DNA of 64,000 nucleotides, from NCBI GenBank assembly GCA_963664115.2, contig CAXWPJ010000010.1:416001-480000 (forward strand), given 5' to 3'. The position numbers were made by a program, and so were the translations under genes. The DNA is from Terriglobia bacterium. GTDB lineage: Bacteria > Acidobacteriota > Terriglobia > 20CM-2-55-15. A model generated the notes under the pieces. That model searched no databases. It had not been told where the DNA came from and saw only the letters and a program-made list of their open reading frames with translations. Position 1 is the stretch's first letter. The number at the start of each line of letters is the position of its first letter. Positions 1,117 through 55,028 of the stretch are shown piece after piece.

Positions 1117-1192
1117 TTGGAAACCCCTCCGACTTCAAGTTAGCCTACATTTTACTTACCCGAAATAAATTTTTAGCCCTCCCTCCGGAAGC

Positions 1193-1459
1193 GTGGAGTA
1201 TACACCCGTTTCGGGCACTGGAATTCTCGTAGCCGTACCGATTCAAACCAGTCCGACGTTTGCAACGAGTAGACTGCGGGAATTGTTTCCACTTGCTCGG
1301 TTACGAGCTATGAATAATGTCGCTAACTACGACATCGAACCTGAAGGTGAGAGATTCATCATGACGACAGAGGACGAGGCAGGGGAGGCATCCTCGAAAC
1401 AAATCAACATCGTCCTGAACTGGTTTGAGGAACTGAAAGAACGGGTGCCGGTGCCATAG
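1193..1459 (+). pseudogene. C-terminal relic of a Ser/Thr protein kinase with a TolB/WD40-like tail
   Basis: Translation ends NYDIEPEGERFIM...QINIVLNWFEELKERVPVP*, the characteristic terminus of acidobacterial kinase-beta-propeller proteins. No kinase domain is present upstream. Confidence 0.75.
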
Positions 1460-1588
1460 TTTTTGAGTTCAAGTCCTGATAAATCGCAGTATGAAAGGAC
1501 GCCCCTAGACTGGGGGTTGTTGAGAGAAGACTCACTCAACAACCTGATCAACGTATACAGCGTTGATCCCAGAAAAGGAGCGTTCGAG

Positions 1589-2653
1589 ATGAAACAAGAC
1601 AAGTATATGGGTATGGATGTGCACCAGGCAACGACGGTGGTTGCGGTGAGAGACGGGAGCGGCAAACTGGTGTTTGAAACGATCGTGGAAACCGAGGCGG
1701 GGAGTATCACACGGCTGCTGGAGGGATTGAGTGGGCCGATGCACGTGGGGTTGGAGGAGACCACGCAAGCGGGCTGGTTATCGGAAGTGATCCGGCCGTG
1801 GGTGAGCGAGGTGGTGGTGTGCGATCCGCGACAGAACAAGTGGATGCAAGAAGGGTCGAAGGGGGATAAGCCGGATGCGCGGAAGCTGGCCGAGCTGTTG
1901 CGGGTGGGACTGTTGCGCTCGGTGTATCACGGCCATGAAGCGACGCGAGAATTGAAGCAACTGGTGCAGGCCTATGACACGTTCCAGTTGGACACGCAAC
2001 GGGTGATGTCGCGGATCAAAGCGATATACCGGGGACGGGGGATCCCGACACCGAAGGACGGAGTCTATCGGCCGAGTCAGCGCGAACAGTGGTTGGAGAA
2101 GCTGACCGAGCCGGGGATGAGGCAGCGCGCCCGATGGTTGTATGCGGAACTGGACCAGGTCCAGTTGCTGCGGAAACAATCCAGAAAAGCGGTGCGAGTG
2201 GAGGGCCGGCACCATGAGGCGGTGAAACTGCTCGAGACCATTCCACAACTGGGACCGGTTCGGGCGGCACAGATCGTCGCCATCGTGGACACGCCGTACC
2301 GATTCCGCACGACACCGCAGTTCTGGAGCTACAGTGGCCTGGGTGTGGTGACCCACATGAGCGCGGAGTATGAGATGCAGAGTGGACGTGTGGTGCGACG
2401 GAGGAAACCGGTGGCCACACGCGGATTGAATGCGAACTGCAACCGGCGATTGAAGTCGGTGTTCTTCTCAGCCGCGGCATCGGGAAAACAAAGCGAGCCG
2501 TATCGGATTTATCTGGAGAGTCTCCAGATGCGTGGGATGCGGGAGGAAATGGCGCGGGTCACTCTGGCCCGTAAGATCGCCGCACTGGTGCTGACGCTTT
2601 GGAAGAAAGGAGAATCGTTCGATCCAAAGAAACTGAGCTGGATGACAACATAA
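1589..2653 (+). CDS. IS110 family transposase/recombinase
   Basis: AGGAG RBS before ATG 1589. DEDD RuvC-like motifs (GMDVH, LEE, DKPDA) and C-terminal IPQLGPV, YSGL and LARKIA motifs. Confidence 0.93.
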   Translation: MKQDKYMGMDVHQATTVVAVRDGSGKLVFETIVETEAGSITRLLEGLSGPMHVGLEETTQAGWLSEVIRPWVSEVVVCDPRQNKWMQEGSKGDKPDARKLAELLRVGLLRSVYHGHEATRELKQLVQAYDTFQLDTQRVMSRIKAIYRGRGIPTPKDGVYRPSQREQWLEKLTEPGMRQRARWLYAELDQVQLLRKQSRKAVRVEGRHHEAVKLLETIPQLGPVRAAQIVAIVDTPYRFRTTPQFWSYSGLGVVTHMSAEYEMQSGRVVRRRKPVATRGLNANCNRRLKSVFFSAAASGKQSEPYRIYLESLQMRGMREEMARVTLARKIAALVLTLWKKGESFDPKKLSWMTT

Positions 2654-2719
2654 GCCGTTTCGATCCGTGACCGGTAGAGCCGTACTGAGTCGTTAGACGG
2701 AGTCGGAACAACTGAGGAT

Positions 2720-2845
2720 CGAGGGTGAGGATCTGCACAAGATGTGGTCCCTGGATACGTCCAGAGGACACTTTTAAATCTCTATCCCCCCTCGCACGAC
2801 CTGAAACAGCGATAGCCTTCGAGGCTCAGATAGATCCATGGTCGG
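2720..2845 (+). ncRNA. Predicted bridge/seek RNA of IS110 element 1 (target loop and donor loop)
   Basis: Two stem-loops. Their internal loops carry ACAAGATG and TAAATC (match the target) and GCGAT and ATAGATC (match the circle junction). True transcript ends are unknown. Confidence 0.75.
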
Positions 2846-3368
2846 CACATGCCGTCCCATATGCTGTTCAGTTTCTGAATCGACCGTCTTAAAGATGTAC
2901 GATTTCGCTCCGGATTGCCGGAACCAGGGCTTCACATAACGGTAGAGGGGCTGGCTGTCACGACAAAAGTGTCCGTCTGGCCGGCCATCGGGGAGCTGTT
3001 TCTCTTGACATCCCCTTTCATAGATCATCTTGTCGGAAGTTGAGAATTGGATTGTGTGGTTTTCGTCGATCCCGAGAGTAGGAAATAGAGACAGTTCTTT
3101 TGTTTTCCTATTGAATAAGACTGGATTCCAGGACTGTGACGGCTCTGAGCCGTTGGTCCAATCCGCCGACCGTCGTCCGGCAGAGCATCAGCGCCGCATA
3201 CCCCAGACACATGCCCCCGCCAATGGTCCATTCCCGGCGAGTTCTGGACAGGTTCAAAACGCTTTCGTTCACGACGTGGAGCCGAAACGTTTGTCAGTCA
3301 AACTTGTCAGAAACTTTCTCGGTGATTGCATTCTGCTTGGACTCGATATTCGAGTGCGCTATTTTTCG

Positions 3369-5753
3369 CTAGCCGCTCAACCATCCCGGCAGAATAGCCT
3401 TGATCTGGTTCCAATAGATCGCGCCGAGAATTACGACAGCGAGCAGGGCGAATAGGGAAACCGCACCGACACGAGTCCAACGAGTTCCTCCGTGGCCGGT
3501 CTGACGTAGGAAGAGGGTGACCAGATCGCGGCGTTCCTTGCGTGCCCCTTCTGGCAAGTGGGGCGTGTGGCTGAAGAGGTATCCGAGCCGCCGCGTCATG
3601 TACATGCGGAAGTTCACCGCCCAGCCGCAGGCCTCCAACAGAGCGCTCATGTCCCGCTTGCGCAGCTTGTTCCAACCCGCAAGGGCACTGAACAGGGCCA
3701 CCACGAGAACCAGGCTCATCAAGGTAATGCCGACCCTCAGAAGGCTGATTTCCGAAAGTGTGCTGATCAGGTAGGCCAGCGATGAACCGATGGCGGCGAA
3801 GGCAATGCCGCCGCCAAGCAGCAGGTCGCGCATGCCAATGCCAGATTGGGGTGGGGCTTGGGCCGATGGCGCCTCGGCAGGCTGCTGGAGCGATTCGCCT
3901 GCTTCCATCTTCGTCGTGACCTCGGTCGTGGCCTTTTCCAGGGATCCCGCCTGGGTGCCTACAAAGGCTTCAACCTTCTCGGATATTAGTTTCTTGGCTT
4001 TCACAAAAGGCGACTTGACCGCTTCGCCCAGGCTGATGGGGTTCTCGATCAAATCCACCACTCGTGCGTCCCACTCATTGCCATCGAGATCATAGAAGAT
4101 ACCGCGCTTGCCAATTTCGATGGCCCCCTGGCCGCCGGAGGTGAGAGCGGCGGCAATCTCGAAACTGGGCCCCAGCCCCTCGGGTACAGTGATCTCGGCG
4201 TACACCAGGTACATCTCGCTGGCCTGGGCGATCTTCTTGTGCTCGGCGCGATTTCGGACCTTTGTCGTGAATGTAAGTTCACGGCCGTCAATGATCAGGT
4301 CGCCCAATTCAAACAGGGCGCGGCGATCCGGGTCGTACATCGCGGAGAAACTTACAAAGTTGTTGGCCAGTTCCAGGAGCCAGCGTTGGTACAGGATGAG
4401 CGTCTCCAGGTCCGTCACCTGCTTCACTTCATCCTTCACCGCTAGATCCTCCAGCAGGAGCTCGAAGAGCCTCTTCTCGGCCGGACCATCTAAATATTCC
4501 CTCAGCGTTGTCTCGCTGATCCGTCCGACGCCATCCGACGGCTTTCCCGCCTGCCACCCTCGGTAGGGCTCGAAAATGGCCTGGACCTGCCCCCAGCCGA
4601 TCCGCGTGAGAGATTGGCGGGAGTTTGGCTGGGCACGGGCAAGGACCCGATTTTGTAATTCGTCCATCTGTTCCCGGTAGTACGGATTGATGGGGCCCCG
4701 CAGATTCAACACACCTTCAGCGTTTGGCGTTTGCAGGGGCGCTCGCGCGAGCTGACTTCTCAGAGCTTCCAGGTCGGAGCCGTCCAGGTTCCAGAGATCG
4801 TGTTCATTCAGGCAGATGCGTTCGGCGGTGCGGGCATCGAGCTGGACCATGTCGCATTGCAAGAAGAACTGTCGGATCTTGGCATCGAACTCCGACGTGA
4901 GCTTCACCGCGGCCGCCGTGTCGCCGCCCCAGGGCAGAATCCCTGCCGCGCCGTCATCTTCGGCGAGCGTCTTCCAGTCCAGGTACGTCCTCGCACGATC
5001 CAGGAATTGGCGCAGGTGATCTTCGTTTATTCCGTCTGCGCCGCTGATGTCCTTGGTACTGCCGACCTGTTTGAGTACGTCCGCTGCCAACTGTGCCGCC
5101 CCGGGATCCGAAACGTGCTCGGGGGGGAGCACCCCGTCGCCGTTGGGAGGCAATTTCCCATATGTATTCTGAAATACGCGGACCTGTTCGAGGCTGATCT
5201 GGTCCATGTTCTTTGCCTTCAACTGGCCCAGGATATGGATCGCGGCTTCCTGGAGCCCCCGGCCCTCCTCGTGGCTGGTATCCAGGTCCGCGAGGCGCAG
5301 GACATCGGAGGACTCAGCCATTCGGTCTCTCGTTGCCATCATATGGAATGTCCAGGTCACTCCCGCCCGCAAATGCTCGGCACGGATTGTCCCGCTGCCA
5401 TCCTGATTCAAGTACTTGAGGAACGCGGGATCGCATTGCAGGCTTTCGATCTGCACACTGGTGGCAGCCCAGCGAGCGGGGTGGAGCTGGTGAATGAAGG
5501 CCAAATCCTCCGCACTCTCGATGCGCAGTTGGTGGATGCCGCCGTAATTTCGAAAGACAATGGGCTTCACAACCCACATTCTACTCTGGAGTGTCCCGGC
5601 CGCGTGGGTGCCACACGTATTTTCGCCGCGATCCGGTTTCCGAAGGTGCGGGTGGCGATTCGTTAGTTTCTTGTCGAAATCCGTTAGATTTCCTTTCTTG
5701 CGATCATGTTCTGAAAATCCGCTCAGGGGCGCGAGCGGCAGAACTGACGTCAA
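3369..5753 (-). CDS. Large uncharacterised protein with C-terminal transmembrane helices
   Basis: 794-aa ORF; the true start is probably near 5579 (MWVVKPIVFRNYGG). It has an EF-hand-like NQDGSGTI motif and about three hydrophobic segments at the C-terminus. Confidence 0.8.
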   Translation of the reverse strand: MTSVLPLAPLSGFSEHDRKKGNLTDFDKKLTNRHPHLRKPDRGENTCGTHAAGTLQSRMWVVKPIVFRNYGGIHQLRIESAEDLAFIHQLHPARWAATSVQIESLQCDPAFLKYLNQDGSGTIRAEHLRAGVTWTFHMMATRDRMAESSDVLRLADLDTSHEEGRGLQEAAIHILGQLKAKNMDQISLEQVRVFQNTYGKLPPNGDGVLPPEHVSDPGAAQLAADVLKQVGSTKDISGADGINEDHLRQFLDRARTYLDWKTLAEDDGAAGILPWGGDTAAAVKLTSEFDAKIRQFFLQCDMVQLDARTAERICLNEHDLWNLDGSDLEALRSQLARAPLQTPNAEGVLNLRGPINPYYREQMDELQNRVLARAQPNSRQSLTRIGWGQVQAIFEPYRGWQAGKPSDGVGRISETTLREYLDGPAEKRLFELLLEDLAVKDEVKQVTDLETLILYQRWLLELANNFVSFSAMYDPDRRALFELGDLIIDGRELTFTTKVRNRAEHKKIAQASEMYLVYAEITVPEGLGPSFEIAAALTSGGQGAIEIGKRGIFYDLDGNEWDARVVDLIENPISLGEAVKSPFVKAKKLISEKVEAFVGTQAGSLEKATTEVTTKMEAGESLQQPAEAPSAQAPPQSGIGMRDLLLGGGIAFAAIGSSLAYLISTLSEISLLRVGITLMSLVLVVALFSALAGWNKLRKRDMSALLEACGWAVNFRMYMTRRLGYLFSHTPHLPEGARKERRDLVTLFLRQTGHGGTRWTRVGAVSLFALLAVVILGAIYWNQIKAILPGWLSG

Positions 5754-5983
5754 TAGTTCGGCTCGATTGGCGTCGCTTTTCTGCTGCGGAGGCCTTGTTC
5801 TGGGCCGTCGTGGACATCATCAACTTAAGCTGTTCGATGGCGTTTTCGGCTCCCTCTGTCGCCTCCGGCGACAGTTTTGCCGGCATCTGGCCATCCATTG
5901 CACTGCAAACCCTGCTGCCGAGTAGAGGAAGCCACTATCGGTCCGTAGGTATCCCCTTGGCCGTATCCGCCGTTTCCGGCATC

Positions 5984-5998
5984 GTGCCCGTGCCCTGA
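5984..5998 (+). pseudogene. Last codons (VPVP*) of a deleted kinase gene
   Basis: GTGCCCGTGCCCTGA ends 12 nt before site B, the same terminus and spacing as at 1459 and 15380. Confidence 0.55.
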
Positions 5999-6119
5999 TC
6001 TTCAAGGTCAAGTCCTGTATCTGGACTCCTCTGTCAAGTAGGCGCAGCTCTCCCGTCAGCTTTCTTCGGCAAAATGCATTCAGCAGGACTGACTAGAAGT
6101 TACGAGGTGAGTAGCTAGT

Positions 6120-7966
6120 CCCTGAACAAGCGTGATTGACGAGGAAATGATAGTGCAATAAGAGCGGAAGTACCCGAAATGCCCCCTCTCCGTGCGAAAA
6201 AAACCTTGAACAGATTCTTCGGAAAAGGAGGCATTTCAGATGAACGATTATACGCGCAAGAACATGAGGAACCGCAAGCGGCGAATCGAACGTCGGCTTG
6301 GGGACCGGCATTGGACGGATCAGGTAGAGCCGATGTTTTCGGCGAGCAACATTCAGTACGAGATGGGAGAGCGGACGCGGGGCACATCGGTTGGTGGTAT
6401 CGGGACGATGCAACTGGTGGCGCGGCGGACCGGGCTGATCGAAGCCATCGACAAGGGCGTGCATGTGTTGAAGCGGCACCTGCCGTATCACGAGTCGGAT
6501 CACGTGCTGAACATCGCCTACAACGCCTTGAGCGGAGGAACGTGCCTGGAAGACATCGAACTGCGGCGCAACGATGCGGTGTATCTGGATGCGCTGGGAG
6601 CGCAACGGATTCCGGATCCGACGACGGCGGGAGACTTCTGCCGGAGATTCGAGGCCGACGACGTGGAGTGTCTGATGGAGGCAACCAATCAAGTCCGGCT
6701 CGGAGTCTGGCGACAGCAACCGGCGGCGTTTTTCGAAGAAGCGGTGTTGGACGCGGACGGGACACTGGCCGAAACCACGGGGGAATGCAAGCAAGGGATG
6801 GACGTGGCCTACGACGGGACGTGGGGATATCACCCGCTGATGATCTCGCTGGCCAACACCGCCGAACCGCTGTATCTGGTCAATCGTAGCGGCAACCGGC
6901 CGTCGCATGAAGGAGCCGCGGTCCGGTTCGACCAAGCCATCGCATTGTGCCGGCATGCGGGGTTTCGCCAGATCCTGCTGCGCGGGGACACGGACTTCAG
7001 CCAGACCCGGCATCTGGACGGATGGGACGACCAGCAGGTGGGTTTCATATTCGGGATTGACGCGATGGCGAACCTGAAGGCCCGGGCCGATGAACTGGAG
7101 CCGCGCCAGTGGAAGCGCCTGGAACGGCCCGCGAAATACGACGTGGCGACCGAACCGCGCCAACGTCCCGACAACGTGAAGGAAGAGATCGTTCGGCAGC
7201 GCGGTTTCGACAATATCCGCTTGCAGGGTGAGGATGTGGCCGAGTTTCGGTATCGACCCGGAGCCTGCGATCGGGACTACCGTGTCGTCGTGGTGCGGAA
7301 GAATCTGTCGGTGGCCAAAGGAGAGCAGGTGTTGTTTGACGACATCCGGTACTTCTTCTACATTACCAACCGTTCGGATCCGGCCGACCAGATTGTGATG
7401 CGTGCCAATCAACGGTGCAATCAGGAGAATCTCATTGAGCAGTTGAAGAACGGCGTTCAGGCGTTGCGGATGCCGGTCGGAGATCAGACCAGCAACTGGG
7501 CCTACATGGTGATCGCGTCACTGGCCTGGACACTGAAAGCGTGGTTTGCATTGCTGCTTCCCGAAACCGGACGTTGGGGCCAAAAATATCAGGCTGAGAA
7601 GCAAACCGTGCTGCGCATGGAGTTCAAAACCTTCTTGAACGCTTTCATGCTTGTGCCGTGCCAACTCGTGCGCACCGGGCGGCGCATTCTGTTCCGGATC
7701 CTGGCCTGGAACCGGTGGTTGCCGGTCTTGTTCCGCGGGGTGGATGTGTTGCGTCAGCCTCTGCGATGTTGACCCGATCATGACTCTGAGCCCGGGCGAT
7801 CGAGGTCCCGGTTTCTGTCAACCGTCCAACACCAGCGAGGCTGAACTGAAACAGATTCAACAGAAACTCGATACCTGGAACAGGCCATCCGGGAACGGGA
7901 TTCTATGCCTCGAATTCTATCGGCGCGAACTGGGCCTCGGCGGACTGGTTATGCGCTTGTTTTGGG
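6120..7966 (+). mobile_element. IS1380 family element, copy 1 (1847 bp)
   Basis: Ends CCCTGAACAAGCG and CGCTTGTTTTGGG; 6-bp TSD GCTAGT on both sides. Confidence 0.95.
6240..7772 (+). CDS. IS1380 family DDE transposase
   Basis: 510 aa with LDADGT, GYHPL, LRGDTDF and RCNQENLIEQLK motifs; five near-identical copies in the window. Confidence 0.93.
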   Translation: MNDYTRKNMRNRKRRIERRLGDRHWTDQVEPMFSASNIQYEMGERTRGTSVGGIGTMQLVARRTGLIEAIDKGVHVLKRHLPYHESDHVLNIAYNALSGGTCLEDIELRRNDAVYLDALGAQRIPDPTTAGDFCRRFEADDVECLMEATNQVRLGVWRQQPAAFFEEAVLDADGTLAETTGECKQGMDVAYDGTWGYHPLMISLANTAEPLYLVNRSGNRPSHEGAAVRFDQAIALCRHAGFRQILLRGDTDFSQTRHLDGWDDQQVGFIFGIDAMANLKARADELEPRQWKRLERPAKYDVATEPRQRPDNVKEEIVRQRGFDNIRLQGEDVAEFRYRPGACDRDYRVVVVRKNLSVAKGEQVLFDDIRYFFYITNRSDPADQIVMRANQRCNQENLIEQLKNGVQALRMPVGDQTSNWAYMVIASLAWTLKAWFALLLPETGRWGQKYQAEKQTVLRMEFKTFLNAFMLVPCQLVRTGRRILFRILAWNRWLPVLFRGVDVLRQPLRC

Positions 7967-7974
7967 GCTAGTCG

Positions 7975-8107
7975 ACTGCACCCGTATCTTCGGCCTCAAA
8001 AGTGGAACTGTATTGTTCCAGGCCATGATGGAAATTTGCGCGCGGGGAGCCAACCGATAAAATAACGGCCTCTAAGGGCCAAAGGACTTGTCGGCGTTGC
8101 CCCGCGC
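7975..8107 (-). ncRNA. Predicted bridge/seek RNA of IS110 element 2
   Basis: On the minus strand the stem GCGCGGGG/CCCCGCGC encloses CAAGTCCT and TTTATC (target match). The next loop holds CCATCAT and AGATA (donor-junction match). Confidence 0.75.
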
Positions 8108-8178
8108 CGGTCTGACCGGTACGCCATCATCTCGAACCTCATCGCAGCTCGCTGAAAAGATATTCCGACTGTTCCGGG

Positions 8179-9213
8179 TCAGGCCGCCTGATACCGGGCC
8201 TGATGGTCACAGTCACGGTTCCAAACCGCCCACACGCGACGCGCCAACTTGTTGGCCAGTGCAACGATTGCCTTGTTGTGTCCGCGGAACTCGTGTTTCT
8301 GGAGACCCCATTGCTGGAGAGGTGTCGGTGTGGCGCCCTCTCGATGGGCACTCCACAACAGGGAACGGCCCCCATGAACCAACAGCATCCGGAGGTAACG
8401 ATCGCCTTGCTTACTGATCCGGCCCATGCGTCGCTGGTTGCCACTGGAATGTTCCCGGGGTGTGAGTCCCAGATAACTGGCAAAATGGCGGGACGTTCGG
8501 AATCGTTTGATGTTTCCAACAAACCCCACCATTGCCGTTGCCGTTAACAGGCCGATGCCGGGAATCGACGTCAGACGCGCGACCTCAGGCATCTGCCGAG
8601 CCAGCGTCTTCAACTCTTGTTCCACCGATCGCATGCGAGATTCCAATTCACGGATCTCGCCACACACCTGGTGAAACATCTCCCGAACGACACTGGGGAT
8701 GACGACATCTGCATCTTCGATCAGCTCCATTACCCCCGGCACCAGATGATCCGCTCCGGTCGGGATCACGTAGCCAAACTCCCGTAACAACCCCCGCACC
8801 GTATTGATCCGTGCGGTTCGGGTTCGCATCCACGCCGAACGGATTCGATGCAATGAGGTCAGTTGCTGTTGGGCCAGGGTTTTGACCGGCACTGGATGAA
8901 TATCGCTGTCACGATAGGCTTCCAACAATCCTTTCACATCCGTACGGTCGGTCTTGTTGCGCCTGACGTAGGGCGTCACATACTGCGGCGAGATCAGAAC
9001 GACCGTGTGTCCCAGTTCCCGGATCTTCCGACCCCAGTAATGGGCGGATCCGCAGGCTTCCATCACCACGGTCGCCAGCTCCTGGTTCGCAAAGAACCCC
9101 AGAAACTTTGCCCGACTTAAACGATAGGTTTTCTCTACATGCCCGGGGCGATCTGAAACACCAATTTGAAAAACATTCTTTGCCAGATCCACTGCTATCG
9201 TTCTATTCTTCAT
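8179..9213 (-). CDS. IS110 family transposase/recombinase
   Basis: MKNRTIAVDLAKNVFQ, MEACG, KTDRTD, SIPGIG, LGLTPREHSSG, GRISKQGD and ALANKLAR motifs. Confidence 0.95.
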   Translation of the reverse strand: MKNRTIAVDLAKNVFQIGVSDRPGHVEKTYRLSRAKFLGFFANQELATVVMEACGSAHYWGRKIRELGHTVVLISPQYVTPYVRRNKTDRTDVKGLLEAYRDSDIHPVPVKTLAQQQLTSLHRIRSAWMRTRTARINTVRGLLREFGYVIPTGADHLVPGVMELIEDADVVIPSVVREMFHQVCGEIRELESRMRSVEQELKTLARQMPEVARLTSIPGIGLLTATAMVGFVGNIKRFRTSRHFASYLGLTPREHSSGNQRRMGRISKQGDRYLRMLLVHGGRSLLWSAHREGATPTPLQQWGLQKHEFRGHNKAIVALANKLARRVWAVWNRDCDHQARYQAA

Positions 9214-9373
9214 CTCGGACTCCTTTTTGTTCACACGTACACGTGTTTCGCCCGCTTTATTGCGAGGCTCAAAATGACTTTGGCACTTCGATGCCGACTC
9301 AGTCATCAAAGAGGAGTCCATACCATCAATAAATCATCTTCTCGGACGTTGAGAAACCCGCTGATTCAAATCA

Positions 9374-9402
9374 TTGCTTCCAACCCACTCGTTCTATAGC
9401 TT
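9374..9402 (+). promoter_or_regulatory. Putative sigma70 promoter between site B and the kinase start
   Basis: TTGCTT-N17-TAGCTT, about 50 nt upstream of ATG 9452. Confidence 0.4.
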
Positions 9403-9451
9403 TCTCGAGCTTTTTCACGTTTAGCAACATCAGAGACAAGGCCCCGAGCGT

Positions 9452-9568
9452 ATGCCCCTCACGTCAGGCACAAAACTCGGTCCGTTTGAGATCCGTGATG
9501 CGATAGGTGCGGGTGGCATGGGCGAAGTCTATCGGGCCACCGATACGCGGCTGGGCCGCACTGTTTAG
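9452..9568 (+). pseudogene. N-terminal relic of a Ser/Thr protein kinase
   Basis: Reads MPLTSGTKLGPFEIRDAIGAGGMGEVYRATDTRLGRTV*, a Hanks-type glycine loop truncated just before the VAIK lysine. Confidence 0.88.
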
Positions 9569-9719
9569 GGCTCTGTATCGGACTGAGAATTATGATAAGA
9601 AGTGTGACATGATGCGGTCTTCGAATCTGGATGTTCACGGTTCTGGGTGTTATCCAGGAATACGCCCGCATTCCTGTTGAGAGATACGACCCGCAACCTG
9701 AACAGCAATGAGCGCTAGT

Positions 9720-11566
9720 CCCAAAACAAGCGCATAACCAGTCCGCCGAGGCCCAGTTCGCGCCGATAGAATTCGAGGCATAGAATCCCGTTCCCGGATG
9801 GCCTGTTCCAGGTATCGAGTTTCTGTTGAATCTGTTTCAGTTCAGCCTCGCTGGTGTTGGACGGTTGACAGAAACCGGGACCTCGATCGCCCGGGCTCAG
9901 AGTCATGATCGGGTCAACATCGCAGAGGCTGACGCAACACATCCACCCCGCGGAACAAGACCGGCAACCACCGGTTCCAGGCCAGGATCCGGAACAGAAT
10001 GCGCCGCCCGGTGCGCACGAGTTGGCACGGCACAAGCATGAAAGCGTTCAAGAAGGTTTTGAACTCCATGCGCAGCACGGTTTGCTTCTCAGCCTGATAT
10101 TTTTGGCCCCAACGTCCGGTTTCGGGAAGCAGCAATGCAAACCACGCTTTCAGTGTCCAGGCCAGTGACGCGATCACCATGTAGGCCCAGTTGCTGGTCT
10201 GATCTCCGACCGGCATCCGCAACGCCTGAACGCCGTTCTTCAACTGCTCAATGAGATTCTCCTGATTGCACCGTTGATTGGCACGCATCACAATCTGGTC
10301 GGCCGGATCCGAACGGTTGGTAATGTAGAAGAAGTACCGGATGTCGTCAAACAACACCTGCTCTCCTTTGGCCACCGACAGATTCTTCCGCACCACGACG
10401 ACACGGTAGTCCCGATCGCAGGCTCCGGGTCGATACCGAAACTCGGCCACATCCTCACCCTGCAAGCGGATATTGTCGAAACCGCGCTGCCGAACGATCT
10501 CTTCCTTCACGTTGTCGGGACGTTGGCGCGGTTCGGTCGCCACGTCGTATTTCGCGGGCCGTTCCAGGCGCTTCCACTGGCGCGGCTCCAGTTCATCGGC
10601 CCGGGCCTTCAGGTTCGCCATCGCGTCAATCCCGAATATGAAACCCACCTGCTGGTCGTCCCATCCGTCCAGATGCCGGGTCTGGCTGAAGTCCGTGTCC
10701 CCGCGCAGCAGGATCTGGCGAAACCCCGCATGCCGGCACAATGCGATGGCTTGGTCGAACCGGACCGCGGCTCCTTCATGCGACGGCCGGTTGCCGCTAC
10801 GATTGACCAGATACAGCGGTTCGGCGGTGTTGGCCAGCGAGATCATCAGCGGGTGATATCCCCACGTCCCGTCGTAGGCCACGTCCATCCCTTGCTTGCA
10901 TTCCCCCGTGGTTTCGGCCAGTGTCCCGTCCGCGTCCAACACCGCTTCTTCGAAAAACGCCGCCGGTTGCTGTCGCCAGACTCCGAGCCGGACTTGATTG
11001 GTTGCCTCCATCAGACACTCCACGTCGTCGGCCTCGAATCTCCGGCAGAAGTCTCCCGCCGTCGTCGGATCCGGAATCCGTTGCGCTCCCAGCGCATCCA
11101 GATACACCGCATCGTTGCGCCGCAGTTCGATGTCTTCCAGGCACGTTCCTCCGCTCAAGGCGTTGTAGGCGATGTTCAGCACGTGATCCGACTCGTGATA
11201 CGGCAGGTGCCGCTTCAACACATGCACGCCCTTGTCGATGGCTTCGATCAGCCCGGTCCGCCGCGCCACCAGTTGCATCGTCCCGATACCACCAACCGAT
11301 GTGCCCCGCGTCCGCTCTCCCATCTCGTACTGAATGTTGCTCGCCGAAAACATCGGCTCTACCTGATCCGTCCAATGCCGGTCCCCAAGCCGACGTTCGA
11401 TTCGCCGCTTGCGGTTCCTCATGTTCTTGCGCGTATAATCGTTCATCTGAAATGCCTCCTTTTCCGAAGAATCTGTTCAAGGTTTTTTTCGCACGGAGAG
11501 GGGGCATTTCGGGTACTTCCGCTCTTATTGCACTATCATTTCCTCGTCAATCACGCTTGTTCAGGG
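9720..11566 (-). mobile_element. IS1380 family element, copy 2
   Basis: Same ends as copy 1; TSD GCTAGT on both sides. Confidence 0.95.
9914..11446 (-). CDS. IS1380 family transposase
   Basis: Protein identical to 6240-7772. Confidence 0.93.
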   Translation of the reverse strand: MNDYTRKNMRNRKRRIERRLGDRHWTDQVEPMFSASNIQYEMGERTRGTSVGGIGTMQLVARRTGLIEAIDKGVHVLKRHLPYHESDHVLNIAYNALSGGTCLEDIELRRNDAVYLDALGAQRIPDPTTAGDFCRRFEADDVECLMEATNQVRLGVWRQQPAAFFEEAVLDADGTLAETTGECKQGMDVAYDGTWGYHPLMISLANTAEPLYLVNRSGNRPSHEGAAVRFDQAIALCRHAGFRQILLRGDTDFSQTRHLDGWDDQQVGFIFGIDAMANLKARADELEPRQWKRLERPAKYDVATEPRQRPDNVKEEIVRQRGFDNIRLQGEDVAEFRYRPGACDRDYRVVVVRKNLSVAKGEQVLFDDIRYFFYITNRSDPADQIVMRANQRCNQENLIEQLKNGVQALRMPVGDQTSNWAYMVIASLAWTLKAWFALLLPETGRWGQKYQAEKQTVLRMEFKTFLNAFMLVPCQLVRTGRRILFRILAWNRWLPVLFRGVDVLRQPLRC

Positions 11567-11591
11567 GCTAGTTTGGAAAGGAGAGAATCCC

Positions 11592-13507
11592 GTGGCGAAA
11601 CCGAAAAAGAGTGGAGTCAACCGTCGTGGTTTCTTGAAAGGTACGGCAATCGGTGCAGCGGCGTTGGTGACGCCGGTGCCGCTCACGCAGGCGCAACAAG
11701 CCGGCCCGCAGCCGGGCACGGCCGCACTGCCCTCTTCCGCGGAGTTGGCGGCCGAGACTGAGCCGCTGCCGCCAGACAGTCAAGTTTTGACCGTGCAGGA
11801 CGCCGGCTCGGATTTCATGGTGGACGTCTTCAAGTCGCTTGGCTTCGAATACATCGCCTCGAATCCCGGTTCGAGTTTCCGAGGTCTTCAGGAGTCATTT
11901 ATCCATTACGGCGGTAACCAGAATCCCGAGTGGCTGACTTGCTGCCATGAAGAGTCATCGGTTGCATTAGCCGACGGCTACTTCCGAGTTTCAGGCAAGC
12001 CAATGATGGTCATGGCGCATGGAACAGTAGGGTTGCAGCACGCGGCGATGACGATCTATAACTCCTTCGTTGCCCGGACCCCCGTTTATATCGTCCTCGG
12101 TAACGCTCTCGACGCCAACACCAGGCGGCCCGGCGTGGAGTGGAATCACAGCGTGCAGGATGCGGCGGCGATGGTTCGCGACTACATCAAGTGGGACGAT
12201 ACGCCGTATTCGCTGCAACACTTTGCCGAGTCGGCTGTGCGGGCCTACAAGATTGCGATGACCGTGCCGATGGCGCCGGTCGTACTGGTGGCCGATGGCG
12301 ACCTGCAGGAGTTCCCGACCGGGGACCGTTCCAGATTGCGTATCCCAAAGCTGACGGTGACGAGGCCGCCCGCGGCCTCTCCCGAAGCATTGGCTGAAGT
12401 GGCCCAATTGCTTGTGGCCGCGGAAGACCCCGTGATCGTTGCCGGCAACGCGGCGCGTACGGAAGAAGGAATGCGACTGATGGTTGAACTGGCTGAGACG
12501 CTTCAGGCGCCGGTGCAAGGGGGTAGCCGCAACATGCCCAATCGGCACTCCTTGAGTGGTGGCGGTGCGCTCGGCAATGCGGACGTGATTCTCGGTCTGC
12601 AGGTGAACGATTTCTGGGGGACGACCCATAGGCTCCGCGATCAGCAGGAACGCTCGTACCGATCAATTACCAAACCCGACGCTAAACTTATTAGCATCTC
12701 CACGAACGATCTGTACACAAAAAGCAACTATCAGGACTTCCAGCGCTACGCTGAGCTGGACATGGCGATTGCTGCCGACGTGGAAGCGACCCTCCCATCG
12801 TTGATCGAGGCCTGCAGGCGGCTCATCACGGGGGATCGCAGGCGTGTCCTCGAGGAGCGCGGCAACAGAATTGCTGCCACAAATGCACAGGCTTTGGCGC
12901 GCGCACGCACGGCAGCGACTCACGGATGGAATGCCAGCCCGATCAGCACCACGCGAATGGCTATGGAGTTGTGGGAAGCAGTTAGAACCAAAGACTGGGC
13001 GCTGGTGCGGGCTGGAAGGAGCACCCAACTGTGGAATATCGATAGGTTCTATCGGACAATAAGCGGCGGGGGCGCAGCTGCTGTTGGCTCCGGCCTTCCG
13101 ACGTCTGTCGGTGCGGCGCTCGCCCACAGGCCATATGGGCGGCTGTGTATCGGCATTCAGAATGACGGAGACATGATGTATGCGCCGGGGCCCTGTGGAC
13201 TGCCGCGCACCACCGCATTCCGCTGTTGCTGGTCATGCATAACAACCGCGCGTATCACCAGGAAGTCATGCACATCCAGCGCATGTCCAACCGTCGGCAG
13301 CGCGGAGTGACGACGGCAACCGACGGCGTTGGGACGAAGATTGAAGATCCCAATATCGATTACGCAACACTTGCCCGAAGCATGGGTCTGTACGGGGAAG
13401 GGCCCATTTCCAATCCCAATGACCTGGGACCGGCGCTACGGCGCGCGGTCGAGCGGGTGGAACAGGGCGAACCGGCACTGGTCGACGTCGTGACTCAACC
13501 CCGATAG
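11592..13507 (+). pseudogene. Thiamine-diphosphate-binding enzyme with twin-arginine signal, frameshifted near 13187-13190
   Basis: NRRGFLK Tat motif, HEES, GDMMY; continues in another frame as HNNRAY...LVDVVTQPR. One G appears to be missing in a G-run, which could be a sequencing error. Confidence 0.8.
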
Positions 13508-13520
13508 GAGGAAAGCGCAG

Positions 13521-13901
13521 ATGTCAGCTGCCATGCGATTCTTGATCATCATGTCCTCCATATTAGTGATGGGCTCGACCCTAAGCGCGCCGACGCTGGC
13601 GCAGGCTCCCGACGTCGCGGTGCCGAGCGGCGACGTCGAAAACGGCAGGCAAATTTACGTCACGTACGGATGCTACCAATGTCACAATTATGCGGCTCAT
13701 GGCGGCAGAGCCGGGCCGCGGCTTGCTCCACGTCCCATAGCCTTTAGGGCGTTCGCTCGTTACGTGCGCACGCCGAGCAATCAGATGCCGCCTTACACCA
13801 CTGAGATCGTCACCGATCAAGAGCTGGCTGATATCTACGCTTTCCTGTTGACTGTGCCACCTCCACCCGCTGTAGACAGCATCCCGATTCTCAACGACTA
13901 G
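13521..13901 (+). CDS. Monoheme cytochrome c
   Basis: Signal peptide, CYQCH and distal MPPY. Confidence 0.9.
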   Translation: MSAAMRFLIIMSSILVMGSTLSAPTLAQAPDVAVPSGDVENGRQIYVTYGCYQCHNYAAHGGRAGPRLAPRPIAFRAFARYVRTPSNQMPPYTTEIVTDQELADIYAFLLTVPPPPAVDSIPILND

Positions 13902-14197
13902 TCACACCCGCACAGCGACGCCGTGATACGCGCCGCTGTGCGTTTCCATTGCTGAAACGTCGACGTTGCCACGGAGTTATTCAAAAGCGGTAACCCCAGG
14001 ACGACCTCGGGACCGGGGCGGCGCTGCTCCAGGCGTTGCTGAAGGGAATCGGGAGTAGTCTTCGCCCAGGCTATCGAGTAAGTTCGGACCATGGTCTTCT
14101 GGAGCTGGCATAGCGAAGTGGATTTCGTCGAGGAAGGCCGTTTTTCGGGGGCTTTCTAGTTACCGCGAAGGCGGTAACACATCCATGTGACCTTTCA

Positions 14198-14226
14198 TTG
14201 ACCCCAAGTCCCCTCCCTCGTATTAT
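14198..14226 (+). promoter_or_regulatory. Putative sigma70 promoter
   Basis: TTGACC-N17-TATTAT upstream of the gene at 14435. Confidence 0.55.
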
Positions 14227-14434
14227 TCAGCCAGATTTTCTAGGTTCTCTTAGCGACACGCAAAAAGCATGGTATCCAGCGCACAGCCAGGCAATTCAAA
14301 GGCAGGATGGCAGAAGTGCTGAAAGCCAAGGACGAAAAACTGGTCGGCGTGATTGAGGGAATCGTTTTCCTAGACATCGACGTTCAAAAATCCTAGCTAT
14401 AGCCCCACAAGCCATAAAACCAGAGGGTAATGCC

Positions 14435-15196
14435 ATGAAGTTTCTTCTGAGTGCCCTAGCCGCCGTCACAGCGGCAGCTAACATTTGCGCATTGGCCCAG
14501 GACTCTGGCGTCGTGCGTGTCCTTAGTTCTAATGGAGTGCGAGTTGTGCTCGAGGAGATGCAGCCGCAGATCGAACAGAGCATAGGACGACGGCTCGCGT
14601 TTGAGTTTAGTACTTCGCGAACTCTGACGGACCGGATCGAGGCAGGCGAAGCATTCGACGTGGCCATACTTACGCCGAGACTCATCGATGAGTTGATCTC
14701 GTTGCAGAAGGTGACGCCAGGGTCGAGCAACGAGTTCGCTCGAGTCGGCATTGGCGTAGGGAGTCGACAGGGAGCGCCTGTCAAGAGCGTCGACACACTG
14801 GAGGACCTCCGACGGACATTTCTAGAGGCGGAATCAGTTGCCTTCGGCTCGGACGGTCAGAGCCGACGAACCAACGAAGCAAGCTTCGAGGCCCTGGGCA
14901 TCGAAGATGAAATGCAGAGCAAGACGACATTGACGGGTCCGGGTGAAGCGCCCGTGCTCGTCGCGGAGGGTGAGATCGAGTTAGTACTGACCCTGGTCAG
15001 CGAGTTGTTACGCGAGCCAGGCGTTCAGCTACTTGGGCCACTGCCTCCTGAGGTCCAGGCATATGTCCACTTTGCCGCGGCCATGAGTGCGGGCGCTGGG
15101 GATCCAAGCACGGCGAGAACGCTTATCAACTTCTTATCGACCCCTGCTTTTGGAGCGGCTCTGGAGAAAAATGGTCTGGAGCCGATGAATCCGTAG
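14435..15196 (+). CDS. ModA-like periplasmic substrate-binding protein (orphan)
   Basis: Signal peptide; RIEAGEAFDVAILT, ARVGIGV, VAEGEIEL and LGPLPPEVQ motifs; no permease nearby. Confidence 0.8.
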   Translation: MKFLLSALAAVTAAANICALAQDSGVVRVLSSNGVRVVLEEMQPQIEQSIGRRLAFEFSTSRTLTDRIEAGEAFDVAILTPRLIDELISLQKVTPGSSNEFARVGIGVGSRQGAPVKSVDTLEDLRRTFLEAESVAFGSDGQSRRTNEASFEALGIEDEMQSKTTLTGPGEAPVLVAEGEIELVLTLVSELLREPGVQLLGPLPPEVQAYVHFAAAMSAGAGDPSTARTLINFLSTPAFGAALEKNGLEPMNP

Positions 15197-15321
15197 CGTT
15201 GAACCCTCCAATGCGAGCAGGATCACATGCCTGCAGGCGGACGTCGAAATTTCGTTGCCGCCCTATCCACCCGTTTTGCGGACAGTCTCCAGTTATCTAT
15301 ACTCTGATTCGACAGACACTT

Positions 15322-15380
15322 AAATCAACGTGGTCTTGATTCGGTTTGAAGAACTGAAGGAACGGGTGCCGACCCCCTGA
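15322..15380 (+). pseudogene. Degenerate C-terminus of a kinase gene
   Basis: INVVLIRFEELKERVPTP*, closely similar at DNA level to 1402-1459. Confidence 0.75.
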
Positions 15381-15392
15381 TTCCCGAGGTCA

Positions 15393-15420
15393 AGTCCTGA
15401 CAAATCATCTTCTCGGACGT
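15393..15420 (+). repeat. dif-like site C (intact)
   Basis: AGTCCTGACAA-ATCATC-TTCTCGGACGT; imperfect inverted arms that extend to TCAA...TTGA. Confidence 0.8.
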
Positions 15421-15538
15421 TGAGAAACCATGTGGCACGTATAAATTCCTGACACCCTCCGATCTCTCAAGTCACGCCACCCGGTTCTTGTGCAAAAAAG
15501 TCAATTGAACTGGTTGTCACCAGGTTACACTCCGAGGA

Positions 15539-15926
15539 ATGGGACGCGGCATCGGCTTCATTTCGTTGATTCTTGCGGCGGCAGTCGGGGCATATCTTTA
15601 CTCAGAGCAGGCCAGTAACGTCACGCCGGGTGGCGGTGGACCGACAGATGCTATTGATGTGACCAGCGTGCGAATGGATCTCATAGGAATCGCCCAAGCC
15701 GAACGCACGTACTTTGCTACGAATGGCAGGTACGCTTCGCTGGATGAACTGCGCGCCAACGGTGACACGCAAATCACCCGCGACAGACGTCCCAACTATA
15801 CGTACTCCGTCGAGACCAGCAACCAGCAACGCAGGCTTCAGGATTATCGCTGACTACTCCGGCCCTGATCCTAATGCGACCAAACGCATCAGCGTTGACG
15901 AAACGCTCACCGTGCGTACTGAGTAG
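15539..15926 (+). pseudogene. Pilin-like hypothetical protein, frameshifted by a 7-bp duplication
   Basis: N-terminal TM helix and AQAERTYFATNGRYASLDEL. ACCAGCA is duplicated at 15815-15828; removing one copy fuses ORFs 15539 and 15714. Confidence 0.7.
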
Positions 15927-15961
15927 ACAGAACCGGCTATTCGGACAACAGTCCATTCTCA

Positions 15962-15989
15962 AGTCCTGAGAAATCATCTTGTCGGACAT
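15962..15989 (+). repeat. dif-like site D (intact)
   Basis: AGTCCTGAGAA-ATCATC-TTGTCGGACAT. Confidence 0.8.
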
Positions 15990-16234
15990 TGAAAATTGGC
16001 AGATTACTGAGGTTTACTTTGTGCAATTTTCTACGATGTCGTTTCGCAGGAATTGAGAATTATTTAGCACCTAACGCCCTCCCTTAGTATTTTTTATAGA
16101 GTTTTTCACAGTTCAATTTGGGACACACTATGTAGCTTCAGCATCTGGTGCGCGCGATTGGCCGTTGCCCGCGTGCGCCGTGCTAAGGCATCCCGCGTCT
16201 CCCGGAAGACGCGGTGTGTGCGATTGTTTCCCAG

Positions 16235-18880
16235 CTAGAAATTAAACCTCGCCGAAAGCGAAATTCGGCGCCCGTCCCGGGCACTCGTCGGCAGACCAAA
16301 GAAGCTTGAAGTCTGGATGCCGTTGAAGCTGTTGTAGTTGACTTTGTTCAGGAGGTTTTCGATCTGGGCGGTCAGCGTCATCCGCAACCCTGTCCGCTGG
16401 CCATAGTAGCCGCCCCCGACCACCGGGCCGGTTGCGGGGCCGGCTTCGCCGACGGCGATTTGATCGGACCGGAGTTGGATGGATTTGGAGAGGTTCATTC
16501 CGACTTCGAAGAAGCTGGGTCCGGTCAGCGAGTTGCGTGGCACGCCTGAGGGCCGGTCGTTGTTGCTCCCGTCCTGGTTGTCGTCCCGCCCGGTCCGCAG
16601 CGTATACGGGCGGCCGCTTTCCCAGTCCAGGCGCGTGTCGGCGTTGATGTTCCAGGGCAGGCGGATGTTGAACGACGAGCTGATCCTATGCCGTGCGCCG
16701 GAACGCCCCCACTCGGAATCGAGGTCGTAGTTGTCGGCGGGCAGCGACCAGCCAAAGCCGTAGGTGTCGGCGTATACGGAGTTGAAGTTGTAGTTGCCGT
16801 TGATGTTGAGAAAGCTCAGACGTTGCCGGCCGCCCAGGAGGATGTTGTGATTTCTGGACGTACCGGTCGATTCCAACTGGCTGACGACGCCCAGCGTCGG
16901 GTCTGGGATGACACAGGTAAGGGCGTCCTGTCCGGGTTGGCAGGAGCGGCGGGTCGATTTCGTGGCGTCGTAGGGAGCGTTGATGTTGCGCGCCCGGTGA
17001 AGACTCCCTCCTCGAACGTAGCGGTACGAGCCGGTCAGGACGAGGCCAGTCGAGAAGGAATGCTCGATGGAGGTTTCCGAGATCCAATTATAGGGTGCGG
17101 CGAGGTCTTCGAAGATCCTGCGGATCGAGGGGGTCTGGTCGTCCAATTCACCTCCCTCGGCCGGGTTCGGGTAGGACGGGTTCTTGATGATGAAGGTGCG
17201 CAGGAACTCGCCGTTCAGCCGCTTGGCGGCGGCGGTTTGATTGACGAAGAACTCGTTGTGGAAGAGTCCCGATCCCCCGCGAACGACGGTGGCCGGCCCG
17301 AGGGAATAGGCGAAGCCGAATGGCGGATCGATATTGTTGTTGTCGTCGAGGTTGGTCTGATTCTGATAACGGACACCGAAGCTCAGCGTCAGGTTGTTCC
17401 GCGCCCGCCAGTCGCTCTGCAGGTAGGTTCCGGTCTCCCACTGGGACACGCCGATCTTCGGTGTGCCCAGCGTCACCTCGTATTGGGACGGGATGCCGGC
17501 CAGGTAGTCATCGAGCGTGTCGAAGGTGAACGTTCCGTTGAAGTTGTTTCGGAAATCGGATACCTCTTCCACATAGACCCCGTCAAACCCGAAGCGCAGG
17601 GACCATCGGTTACCCGTGTACATCGTCAGGTTTCCGAACTCGAAATCGGTGCGGGTGCTTTCCTGGTTGTTGGGTGAACCGCCGGAACGGAACGCGCCGG
17701 TGACATCGACGTGAGGGGCGTCGAGGATGGGAACGTTCCGGCTGGTGACCCGGATATAGCGAAAACGGGCTTCGTTGTTGAACGAGCGCGAGATGATCGC
17801 CGTTTCCCTCACCTGGAAATTGAAATCGTCCCGGTCCGACGTGTGGCTCTGCTCGGGAAGGCCGAAGCCGCCCACGTTGTTGTTTTCTCTTTGGAAGGTT
17901 CCCCACGTAAGGCTCGAGTGGAGCAGGTGGTTGAGCGAAAGCTGGGCCGTGGCCCGCGCCGTGTAACTCTGAGTGTTCGTCGGCTGGGTCACCGCCGTAT
18001 TGACAAGGCCGGTGGGCGTGAATGCCAAAAGGTTTTCGCCGTTCTCCGAGTTTTCGTTCTGAAAGCTGAAGGTCAACGTCAGCCGGTCGCGAAGCACCGG
18101 GCCACTGATGTTTCCGTTGAAATTGCGGCGTTGGTAGGGCGGGCGGCTGTCGGCAAAGGCGTTCCGGGCATCGAGAGATTCGTCGGCGAAATCGAAGGTG
18201 ATATCGCCGTTGTAGCGGCCCGTGCCGCCGCGAGTGATGATTTCGGTCTGTCCACGGGACTGTCCGATGGTTTGAGCGGTGAAGGCATTCTCATTGATCC
18301 GGATTTCCTGGATCTCGTCGCGGTTCGGTAGGCGGCCGCCGCCAAAACCATCGATGACCAGGTCGTCGTTGCGCGGGTTGGCTGTCGTGCCGCTGGCCGG
18401 GCTGCGCAGGTCGTTGAGGTACTCGCGAAGCTCGGCTTCATCTTCGGGTAGGTCACTGTTGAGCTCGGCGATGTCGGAGGCGGAGAGCGATCCCGTCCAG
18501 GCGGCGCGCTGGGCGGGATTCAGGAACTTGATCGCAGCGAGCAGGAGCTGGTCGCCCAGTACGAGGATTTCCCCTTCGATCCCGTCGCGGTTGCCGCCGT
18601 TGGCCTCCAGCATGTCGTTCAAGGCGCGGAGATGAGCCTCGTAGACCGAGCGGACCTGCGTCTCCTGGTCAAACGGTATCGGCGGCGCGCCGGCGGCGGC
18701 CAAAGTTGCCTGAAGCCCCGCGACGCCGTCTTCCAACAAGATACGGCCCGCTTCGATGCGCTCGATGCCGATCTCTGCCTGGGGCTGGTCCCGGACCGGG
18801 GCCGTCTGTGCGGGTCGAGACACGGTAGGAGAAACGGCGACGAGTGTGAGTATGAGGAGCAGAGGAGTCAGCTGAGCCAT
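16235..18880 (-). CDS. TonB-dependent-receptor-like outer-membrane beta-barrel protein
   Basis: 881 aa with signal peptide; LDARNAFA, YLQSDWR, FGVRY and TGRDDNQDG motifs and terminal RFNF. Confidence 0.85.
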   Translation of the reverse strand: MAQLTPLLLILTLVAVSPTVSRPAQTAPVRDQPQAEIGIERIEAGRILLEDGVAGLQATLAAAGAPPIPFDQETQVRSVYEAHLRALNDMLEANGGNRDGIEGEILVLGDQLLLAAIKFLNPAQRAAWTGSLSASDIAELNSDLPEDEAELREYLNDLRSPASGTTANPRNDDLVIDGFGGGRLPNRDEIQEIRINENAFTAQTIGQSRGQTEIITRGGTGRYNGDITFDFADESLDARNAFADSRPPYQRRNFNGNISGPVLRDRLTLTFSFQNENSENGENLLAFTPTGLVNTAVTQPTNTQSYTARATAQLSLNHLLHSSLTWGTFQRENNNVGGFGLPEQSHTSDRDDFNFQVRETAIISRSFNNEARFRYIRVTSRNVPILDAPHVDVTGAFRSGGSPNNQESTRTDFEFGNLTMYTGNRWSLRFGFDGVYVEEVSDFRNNFNGTFTFDTLDDYLAGIPSQYEVTLGTPKIGVSQWETGTYLQSDWRARNNLTLSFGVRYQNQTNLDDNNNIDPPFGFAYSLGPATVVRGGSGLFHNEFFVNQTAAAKRLNGEFLRTFIIKNPSYPNPAEGGELDDQTPSIRRIFEDLAAPYNWISETSIEHSFSTGLVLTGSYRYVRGGSLHRARNINAPYDATKSTRRSCQPGQDALTCVIPDPTLGVVSQLESTGTSRNHNILLGGRQRLSFLNINGNYNFNSVYADTYGFGWSLPADNYDLDSEWGRSGARHRISSSFNIRLPWNINADTRLDWESGRPYTLRTGRDDNQDGSNNDRPSGVPRNSLTGPSFFEVGMNLSKSIQLRSDQIAVGEAGPATGPVVGGGYYGQRTGLRMTLTAQIENLLNKVNYNSFNGIQTSSFFGLPTSARDGRRISLSARFNF

Positions 18881-54982: not shown

Positions 54983-55028
54983 GACGCAAATAACACAGCT
55001 GAGAGCCTCTTACGTTCCCCCTACTAGA

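Follow-up and report, generated by a model that had tools for sequence, protein, structure and literature searches.

We analyzed a 64,000-nucleotide stretch of the Terriglobia bacterium assembly GCA_963664115.2 (the window; C10:416001-480000 of a 4.89-Mb, 12-contig genome, here called G000), the left end of which is divided into gene modules by four directly repeated copies, A to D, of a short site with the architecture of a tyrosine-recombinase target. All four copies are present at the coordinates given in an earlier note on this DNA; C and D are intact, while A and B are split by insertion sequences (IS) of the IS110 family. Site A, on the plus strand like the others, consists of a left portion (1469..1485; left arm and first half of the spacer) and a right portion (3024..3043; spacer and right arm), with its core at 1472-1485 plus 3027-3040. 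The spacer center is occupied by an IS110-family element with the triplet ATC on each side (1486..3023, plus strand; Pfam DEDD_Tnp_IS110, PF01548/PF02371; transposase open frame, 1463-2653). Site B (6008..6017 and 9329..9352; core, 6011-6017 plus 9329-9349) is interrupted in its left arm by an IS110/IS1111-type element (6018..9328, minus strand; transposase, 8179-9321 on the same strand), which is itself interrupted by an IS1380-type element (~6106-7972). Sites C (15390..15423; core, 15393-15420) and D (15959..15992; core, 15962-15989) read TCAAGTCCTGACA AATCATCT TCTCGGACGTTGA and TCAAGTCCTGAGA AATCATCT TGTCGGACATTGA, respectively, each a 34-bp unit of 13-8-13 form. Additional sites at C10:406441, 410633, and 415444 show that the array begins before the left edge of the window.

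The modules between these sites carry genes of varied type together with remnants of one particular gene. Just 5' of site A lies the 3' end of a gene for a Ser/Thr kinase with PD40 repeats (1214..1459, plus strand), ending in WFEELKERVPVP and a stop codon; nhmmer matches it to kinase profile positions 2423-2656 at C10:417214-417457. Module A-B encodes a 794-amino-acid open reading frame (ORF) with no Pfam match (3369..5753, minus strand). Module B-C opens with a 5' stub of a Ser/Thr kinase gene (MPLTSGTKLGPFEIRDAIGAGGMGEVYRA...; 9452..9565, plus strand; kinase profile search), which is followed by a second IS1380-type element (9715..11571, minus strand; Pfam; inverted repeat I3 with 6115-7971), by genes for a thiamine pyrophosphate (TPP)-dependent enzyme, a cytochrome c, and an ABC-type solute-binding protein (11592..15196, plus strand; Pfam), and by a 3' kinase stub 5' of site C (15322..15380, plus strand; repeat D18 and kinase profile). 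The TPP-dependent enzyme gene is frameshifted in this assembly; the frameshift (window 13186) is not present in four sequencing runs and may be an assembly error or a strain difference. Module C-D (569 bp) contains a 104-amino-acid ORF with a hydrophobic N terminus and no Pfam match (15539..15853, plus strand); a 7-nucleotide (nt) duplication in this gene (window ~15818-15831), which three runs do not have, may likewise reflect either an assembly error or a strain difference. Past site D is a degenerate inverted site of a second class (16023..16095, minus strand; spacer class ACGACA), read by eye and lying under the profile threshold. After it, on the plus strand, comes the leader found elsewhere in front of kinase genes, which here has lost its kinase gene. 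As the earlier note had stated, no tyrosine recombinase is encoded in the window. An Rfam scan of window positions 1-20000 gave 0 matches.

The four copies proved to be part of a genome-wide system of about 45 clusters rather than a local array. A profile built from 119 close genome copies, applied with a score cutoff of at least 10, gave 179 matches in G000 (201 with the arms only) and none, in either form, in the reversed genome used as the control. The matches collapse to 184 distinct places, 138 with the spacer ATCATC, 24 with ACGA.., and 22 with other spacers; further copies are split by IS elements. Hybrid-looking spacers (ACGATC and ATCACC), each one change from a parent spacer, were left uncounted. 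Information reaches about 1.5 bits or higher over most of the span from position -2 to 31, and conservation thus runs 3 bp past each 11-bp arm. The conserved unit is therefore not the 28 bp of the dif-like 11-6-11 arrangement proposed earlier but 34 bp (13-8-13), with the consensus TCAAGTCCTGAGA AATCATCT TCTCGGACGTTGA. That the asymmetric spacer is invariant, as expected of a tyrosine-recombinase core site, is confirmed by the 115 of 142 sites, picked by their arms alone, that carry the same 8-bp spacer.

Neighboring ATCATC sites less than 12 kb apart are direct repeats in 83 of 86 pairs in G000 and in 39 of 42 in the congener G002, in accord with the same-orientation layout noted in the window. 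At least five intact sites occur in 7 of the 45 same-orientation clusters. Together, the sites delimit 105 modules of 389 to 10428 bp (median, 2413 bp) that amount to 321 kb, or 6.6% of the genome, which is a lower bound. Single-gene modules are mostly co-oriented (28/34), and modules are often multigene. The second-class sites (24 places) are inverted and often lie 58 to 59 or 148 bp past a main site, just before a kinase leader; neither they nor the kinase stubs at module ends had been recognized in the earlier description of the modules. Among the 106 proteins scanned of the 246 encoded in modules, cargo types include hydrolases, acetyltransferases, glyoxalases, DUF6152 proteins, oxidoreductases, transporters, and many proteins without known function. 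For the housekeeping-type module genes that were checked, other copies are present elsewhere in the genome. One module (C2:330491-332179) carries a second, divergent RpoD, 71% identical to the other copy, and another (C2:256969-258402) an extra S1-domain protein, 33% identical to its counterpart; a reverse transcriptase gene also lies within a module (L238:6207-7376, contig C11).

Modules change neighbors at the sites within G000, between G000 and G002, and in one sequencing run, as was to be looked for on the proposal of a cassette system. Flanking sequence is shared by 26 pairs among 136 G000 sites; ten pairs sharing both flanks were set aside as duplicated assembly segments, and in the other 16 (12 independent) one flank only is shared. 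Whole modules of 1289 bp (99.5%) and 389 bp (96.9%) are duplicated from site to site in unrelated arrays within G000. When 63 G002 sites, from about 400 kb, were compared with those of G000, all 19 sharing pairs had one flank in common and none had both. These pairs include the region 5' of window site C, where the last gene of module B-C and its downstream flank are joined to a different downstream neighbor. A module of 1828 bp is common to the two genomes at 95%. Similarly, a 3304-bp contig from run X14 contains a site, 594 other bases, and window positions 14299-15425 through site C, past which come about 1.5 kb other than the C-D module. The absent coverage of the C-D module in runs X11, X12, X14, and X16 was not taken as evidence. 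Junctions lie in the 34 bp even where the flanks otherwise share nothing, and the bases just outside the site track their own flank (upstream, 7 to 8 of 8; downstream, 9 of 9), so that exchange must fall inside the 34 bp. We are therefore confident that shuffling of modules takes place at the sites. Elsewhere in the genome, C6:24232-48350 and C11:1-7900 and 54773-58377 carry the same modules joined differently at a site, possibly as two haplotypes of one population.

Insertion sequences use the sites as targets. Genome-wide, the IS110 element found in site A is joined to the spacer center of a site at every left end (8/8) and every right end (7/7), and the IS110/IS1111-type element found in site B abuts a site arm with 11 of 12 left and 7 of 8 right ends; other IS elements also split sites at fixed points. 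IS1111-type elements target attC sites as well (PMC11187229), and IS1202 elements at Xer sites are a further parallel in the account given by bioRxiv 2022.12.17.520857. Such targeting suggests that the target sites are long-lived and abundant. In addition, IS91-family (Y2) elements with an upstream tyrosine recombinase have left ends that join 2 nt past the 6-bp spacer of sites, in three cases in G000, in 2 of 2 in G002, and in several at the spacers of a second site family (see below) in G143, G102, G013, and G007; five junctions examined in G001 are not site-like. Elements of this family lie at C1:92884, C1:108637, C2:196409, C3:2883, C5:307858, C10:411530, and C12:36312, 159160, 486945, and 570248 in G000 and at loci L058, L060, L066, L070, L122, L158, L167, and L282.

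The kinase gene recurs throughout the system. Four intact genes for Ser/Thr kinases with PD40 repeats (877 to 902 amino acids) are present in G000, one of which exactly fills the module C10:248436-251253, and in G003 two intact kinase genes stand in tandem between sites. Of the 223 fragments detected with a kinase DNA profile, 194 lie no farther than 10 kb from a site and 187 share the site's strand. Forty-nine are 5' stubs that begin at the first codon and extend for 33 to 800 nt, and a spacer core lies no more than 45 bp from 63 of 131 kinase 3' ends; at many sites, neither side has a kinase stub. The third codon positions are the most variable in a set of 81 distinct 3' stubs (0.79, versus 0.92 and 0.93), which indicates that the stubs derive from many once-functional kinase genes. 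A promoter scan of an intact copy of the kinase leader revealed no consensus promoter, hence our use of the term "leader" for what is only presumed to hold a promoter. At L148, L149, L153, and L155 (G102 and G143), full-length kinase genes stand in tandem with overlapping stop and start codons and no site between them, and a long palindromic repeat resembling repetitive extragenic palindromes separates kinase genes in G013, G021, and G102 (L159, L161, and L149). Kinase paralogues and many short repeats are described for Solibacter in PMC3174227, in the accessible portions of which no such site is mentioned.

A strict pattern of the site was found in 6 of 41 relatives (G000, 126; G002, 85; G003, 40; G001, 8; G007, 1; G017, 1; control, 0) and a spacer-free pattern in 10 of 301 genomes of the class, nine of these in two genera; eight metagenome stretches also contain the site. 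The named records that hold the site together with kinase stubs belong to the class Terriglobia. Short-pattern matches in non-acidobacterial genomes look like chance, being without outer arms and kinase stubs. Phages were rejected as carriers on 0 matches for two patterns of the site (family 1) in viral contigs, and a plasmid BLAST search returned only matches with E of about 6. In the sister genera, where kinase arrays also occur, family-1 sites are few, and a related second family (outer CAC...GTG; spacer mostly GTCGCC or GTCGGC) is located in the same positions, at kinase gene ends. This family (loci L148-L167, L120-L128, and L261-L270) gave 28 matches in 527 kb of sister-genus loci versus 0 in the control, and 6 in G000; it occurs in 5 of 400 other genomes of the phylum, where several matches adjoin kinase genes. 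Thus, the cassette site differs between genera.

The earlier reading of the site as dif-like was right about its type, that of a tyrosine-recombinase core site, and not about the closest known member, which is a lox-type site. The host dif is another sequence, in single copy at C2:108118 near the skew maximum of that contig, and an identity of the cassette site with the chromosomal dif was rejected accordingly. When Vibrio plasmid p0908 was scanned for 13-8-13 palindromes with at least 12 of 13 matches, only one was found, 435 bp upstream of a 380-amino-acid recombinase gene. Its arms match those of the cassette consensus at 22 of 26 positions (single sites, 19 to 24), including its one asymmetric arm position; the maximum in 9.8 million positions of reversed genome is 20. 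We take this palindrome to be VloxP from the description in PMC3082901, the text of which does not print the sequence. With a relaxed arm pattern, all 4 viral matches adjoin VCre homologues (75 to 99% identity), and one of the Cre-type targets predicted in PMC10250229 (supplement) resembles the right arm of the site. Both the cassette site and VloxP are thus 34-bp 13-8-13 sites with an asymmetric spacer. Known lox sites, as portrayed in PMC10250229 and PMC4957104, occur as one site near (<1 kb) the recombinase gene, whereas the ~180 sites here bound cargo modules chromosome-wide and have less palindromic arms, and no cognate gene was found adjoining them.

Other systems are comparable in part. 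Like the pdif/xrs modules of Acinetobacter plasmids and chromosomal dif islands, the present modules are free of recombinase genes, lie between short tyrosine-recombinase sites, are shuffled (in the pdif case between replicons), and are targeted by IS elements (bioRxiv 2022.12.17.520857). The sites of pdif modules are characterized in PMC11705084, PMC13141974, and PMC12907356, so far as these were available, by alternating orientation, varied spacers, and a dif-like XerD arm. Here, in contrast, the sites are direct, one spacer prevails, the XerD-side arm matches dif poorly, and the inverted second class occurs at just 24 places; the distinction from pdif modules drawn earlier is therefore upheld, as is that from attC sites. 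The long same-orientation arrays and co-oriented single-gene modules recall integron arrays and attC clusters lacking an integrase. They differ from integrons in showing no hairpin covariation, attC motifs, or link to intI, and their modules are larger, often multigene, and associated with kinase stubs; attC sites are longer and have core motifs of their own. SCRaMbLE, a system of engineered loxPsym sites in synthetic yeast, shares the feature of many mutually compatible lox-type sites across a genome, while the present system is natural and bacterial, has an asymmetric spacer that fixes direction, and is limited to accessory-gene islands. Full-text literature searches, with most subscription journals outside their scope, found no description of such a system, and a site-bounded, shuffled gene-module system of this kind is likely undescribed.

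To account for the structure of the site, the geometry of the arrays, the reassortment of modules at breakpoints in the 34 bp, the kinase stubs, and the IS targeting, all of which are observed, we tentatively favor an explanation in which the sites are chromosome-wide gene-cassette boundaries recombined by a Cre-like tyrosine recombinase, either dedicated or visiting, that stems from mobile elements. The recombinase would bind both 13-bp arms and exchange strands in the spacer, which would make any two AATCATCT sites compatible. Modules would excise as circles and reenter at another site or, alternatively, be swapped with incoming DNA by two crossovers. The founder cassette would have been site-leader-kinase gene-site, and new cassettes would form through replacement of the interior of a kinase cassette by foreign DNA. 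The enzyme may be present only transiently or be tightly repressed, because free activity on ~140 compatible sites would scramble the chromosome. With its hundreds of lox-type sites, one Cre-like recombinase, a kinase founder, lineage-specific site families, and a guild of IS elements, such a SCRaMbLE-like system may constitute a third bacterial gene-cassette platform beside integrons and dif modules, a suggestion that we put forward with the same reserve; if a single Cre-like enzyme is shown, the system would be categorically new in kind.

Several observations weigh against this explanation. The asymmetry of the arms is constant (7 of 11 self-matching positions in the inner consensus arms), and even the intact copies at C5, with an arm self-match of 10/13, fall short of the near-perfect inverted arms of lox (at most 1 to 2 mismatches in 13). 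In flank-sharing pairs, which are not all independent, the variable arm positions do not track the flank (position 9, 4/8; position 20, 5/9). A clean crossover in the spacer does not predict such scrambling, which could stem from repeated exchange, copy-to-copy conversion, or homologous recombination. The circle junctions that the earlier note had suggested looking for were not seen in the assembled contigs, which break at the repeat, short joints there being uninformative. The VloxP comparison is post hoc, having been prompted by a likeness. No cognate Cre-type recombinase gene was found beside this site in the genomes examined; the assemblies are all incomplete (92 to 98%), so that genes not found in them may nonetheless be present. 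VCre has no match in G000 and matches in 3 of 35 family genomes, strong only in G002 and G003. The Cre-like gene of these two (L244:1340-2740 in G002; L243 in G003, with one internal stop; 33% to VCre) is flanked by different inverted palindromic sites of its own, with no family-1 site in the ~100 kb of sequence examined. These sites, together with its membership in a large and widespread family (>1900 clusters), led to its rejection as the enzyme. Lastly, the only G000 match of the Cre-family profile (E, 1.4e-10), a 316-amino-acid recombinase at C5:52189-53139, is most similar, among PDB entries, to Xer proteins, and the site- or kinase-rich relatives G002, G003, G004, G102, and G143 yielded no counterpart of it. 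Its gene lies between two inverted second-class sites with the same spacer (C5:52065-53264; L168), each followed outward by a kinase leader and a 5' stub; this segment may be capable of inversion. We also rejected the idea of one conserved "primary" site adjacent to a recombinase, since the ATCCGG copy common to G001 and G004 lies in an ordinary module.

Among the 27 tyrosine-recombinase matches in G000 are XerC and XerD, and the same cassettes might instead be recombined by these host proteins; the system would then be a variant of dif modules in which the repeats are direct and the XerD arm is degenerate, so that an activator or a XerC-first route is required. Of the tyrosine recombinases, XerC and XerD alone have orthologues (78 to 92% identity) in all three site-rich genomes, G000, G002, and G003; the fixed asymmetry of the arms suits two different proteins; and low-rate Xer recombination among multiple sites is documented for Acinetobacter in the sections of PMC11705084 and PMC13141974 consulted. 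One arm agrees with the XerC side of the host dif at 8 of 11 positions and the other with the XerD side at just 5 of 11, a total of 13/22 that is reached by 3.5e-4 of genome positions, whereas the XerD arms of pdif sites are close to dif (PMC11705084; PMC13141974, Table 1). Moreover, conservation reaches 3 bp past each 11-bp arm; the cassette site changes from genus to genus, unlike the host dif, a single copy of which is retained in 16 of 35 family genomes; and the clusters have no replichore orientation bias (23 versus 21 of 44 scored, by a rough skew proxy). We thus consider host XerCD an unlikely agent. Loci of the various recombinases also differ in their proximity to family-1 or family-2 sites, which were found near 3 of 11 loci of the C5 family, 6 of 18 of IS91-associated recombinases, 0 of 11 of xerC/xerD, 0 of 8 of intI, and 1 of 22 others. 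The tyrosine recombinases of IS91-family elements, which could act on the sites in trans, are encoded by 8 genes in G000, are present in 15 of 35 family genomes and in 10 of 11 genomes rich in kinase ends, and group with IntI according to bioRxiv 542381, as far as that source was available; their elements also join exactly 2 nt past site spacers in the cases given above. They were not found in G003, which has 40 sites (in 30 contigs, so that IS copies may be unassembled), their co-occurrence with kinase ends is confounded by assembly quality and kinship, and the similarity of element ends in and out of sites, together with the five G001 junctions, fits a parasite with a short target. This explanation seems improbable to us.

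Two further explanations were considered. The site could be a protein-binding operator carried along with amplified kinase genes, the shuffling being homologous or slippage recombination at short repeats and stubs. In accord with this, breakpoints fall anywhere in the core and not at the spacer, sites stand at kinase gene ends with the inverted class just before the kinase leader, and family-1 sites are few in the sister genera, whose kinase genes form tandem arrays. An invariant asymmetric spacer (115/142) and a second fixed spacer class are, however, what strand exchange, unlike an operator, would lead one to expect; many sites lack a kinase stub on either side, junctions lie in the 34 bp even where nothing else is shared, and the sister genera do have a related site at the same positions. 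An operator is therefore hardly probable. Finally, an integron integrase encoded in the genome might recombine the sites in single-stranded, hairpin form, the sites then being unusual attC sites. This IntI (C9:714590-715759; L185) scores above the TIGR02249 cutoff, IntI is also present in G001 and G002 and in all in 11 of 35 family genomes, and the sequence of the site permits a hairpin with two bulges to be drawn. Across 209 sites, nonetheless, the variable paired positions 9 and 20 show no covariation (100 paired versus 101.6 expected), and the folding signal is absent, with z-scores of about -0.2 to -0.6. With no hairpin selection, the site is not an attC; it is also shorter than attC and without its core motifs, the site nearest to intI (C9:911008) is ~190 kb away, and IntI was not found in G003. 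The attC/IntI explanation is thus largely refuted and very improbable.

Apart from the sites, window positions 54053-59162 hold plasmid-type RepA_C and ParA/MipZ genes amid IS copies, which suggests an integrated plasmid remnant, and a 33-bp tandem repeat of at least 5 copies (63839-64000) runs past the window end.

Tools now in use to find integrons and pdif modules are not designed to detect a cassette system such as this would be. The two IS110-family elements with a natural target here (8/8 and 11/12 left ends) offer material for studies of RNA-guided targeting, and a dedicated recombinase, if one exists, would be a new site-specific tool. That one chromosome bears well over 100 compatible direct-repeat sites raises the question of how the enzyme is controlled. 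For the organism, the system would organize at least 321 kb (6.6%) of the genome, and it is a possible route to the amplification of Ser/Thr kinase genes and the accumulation of accessory enzymes in some Acidobacteriota.

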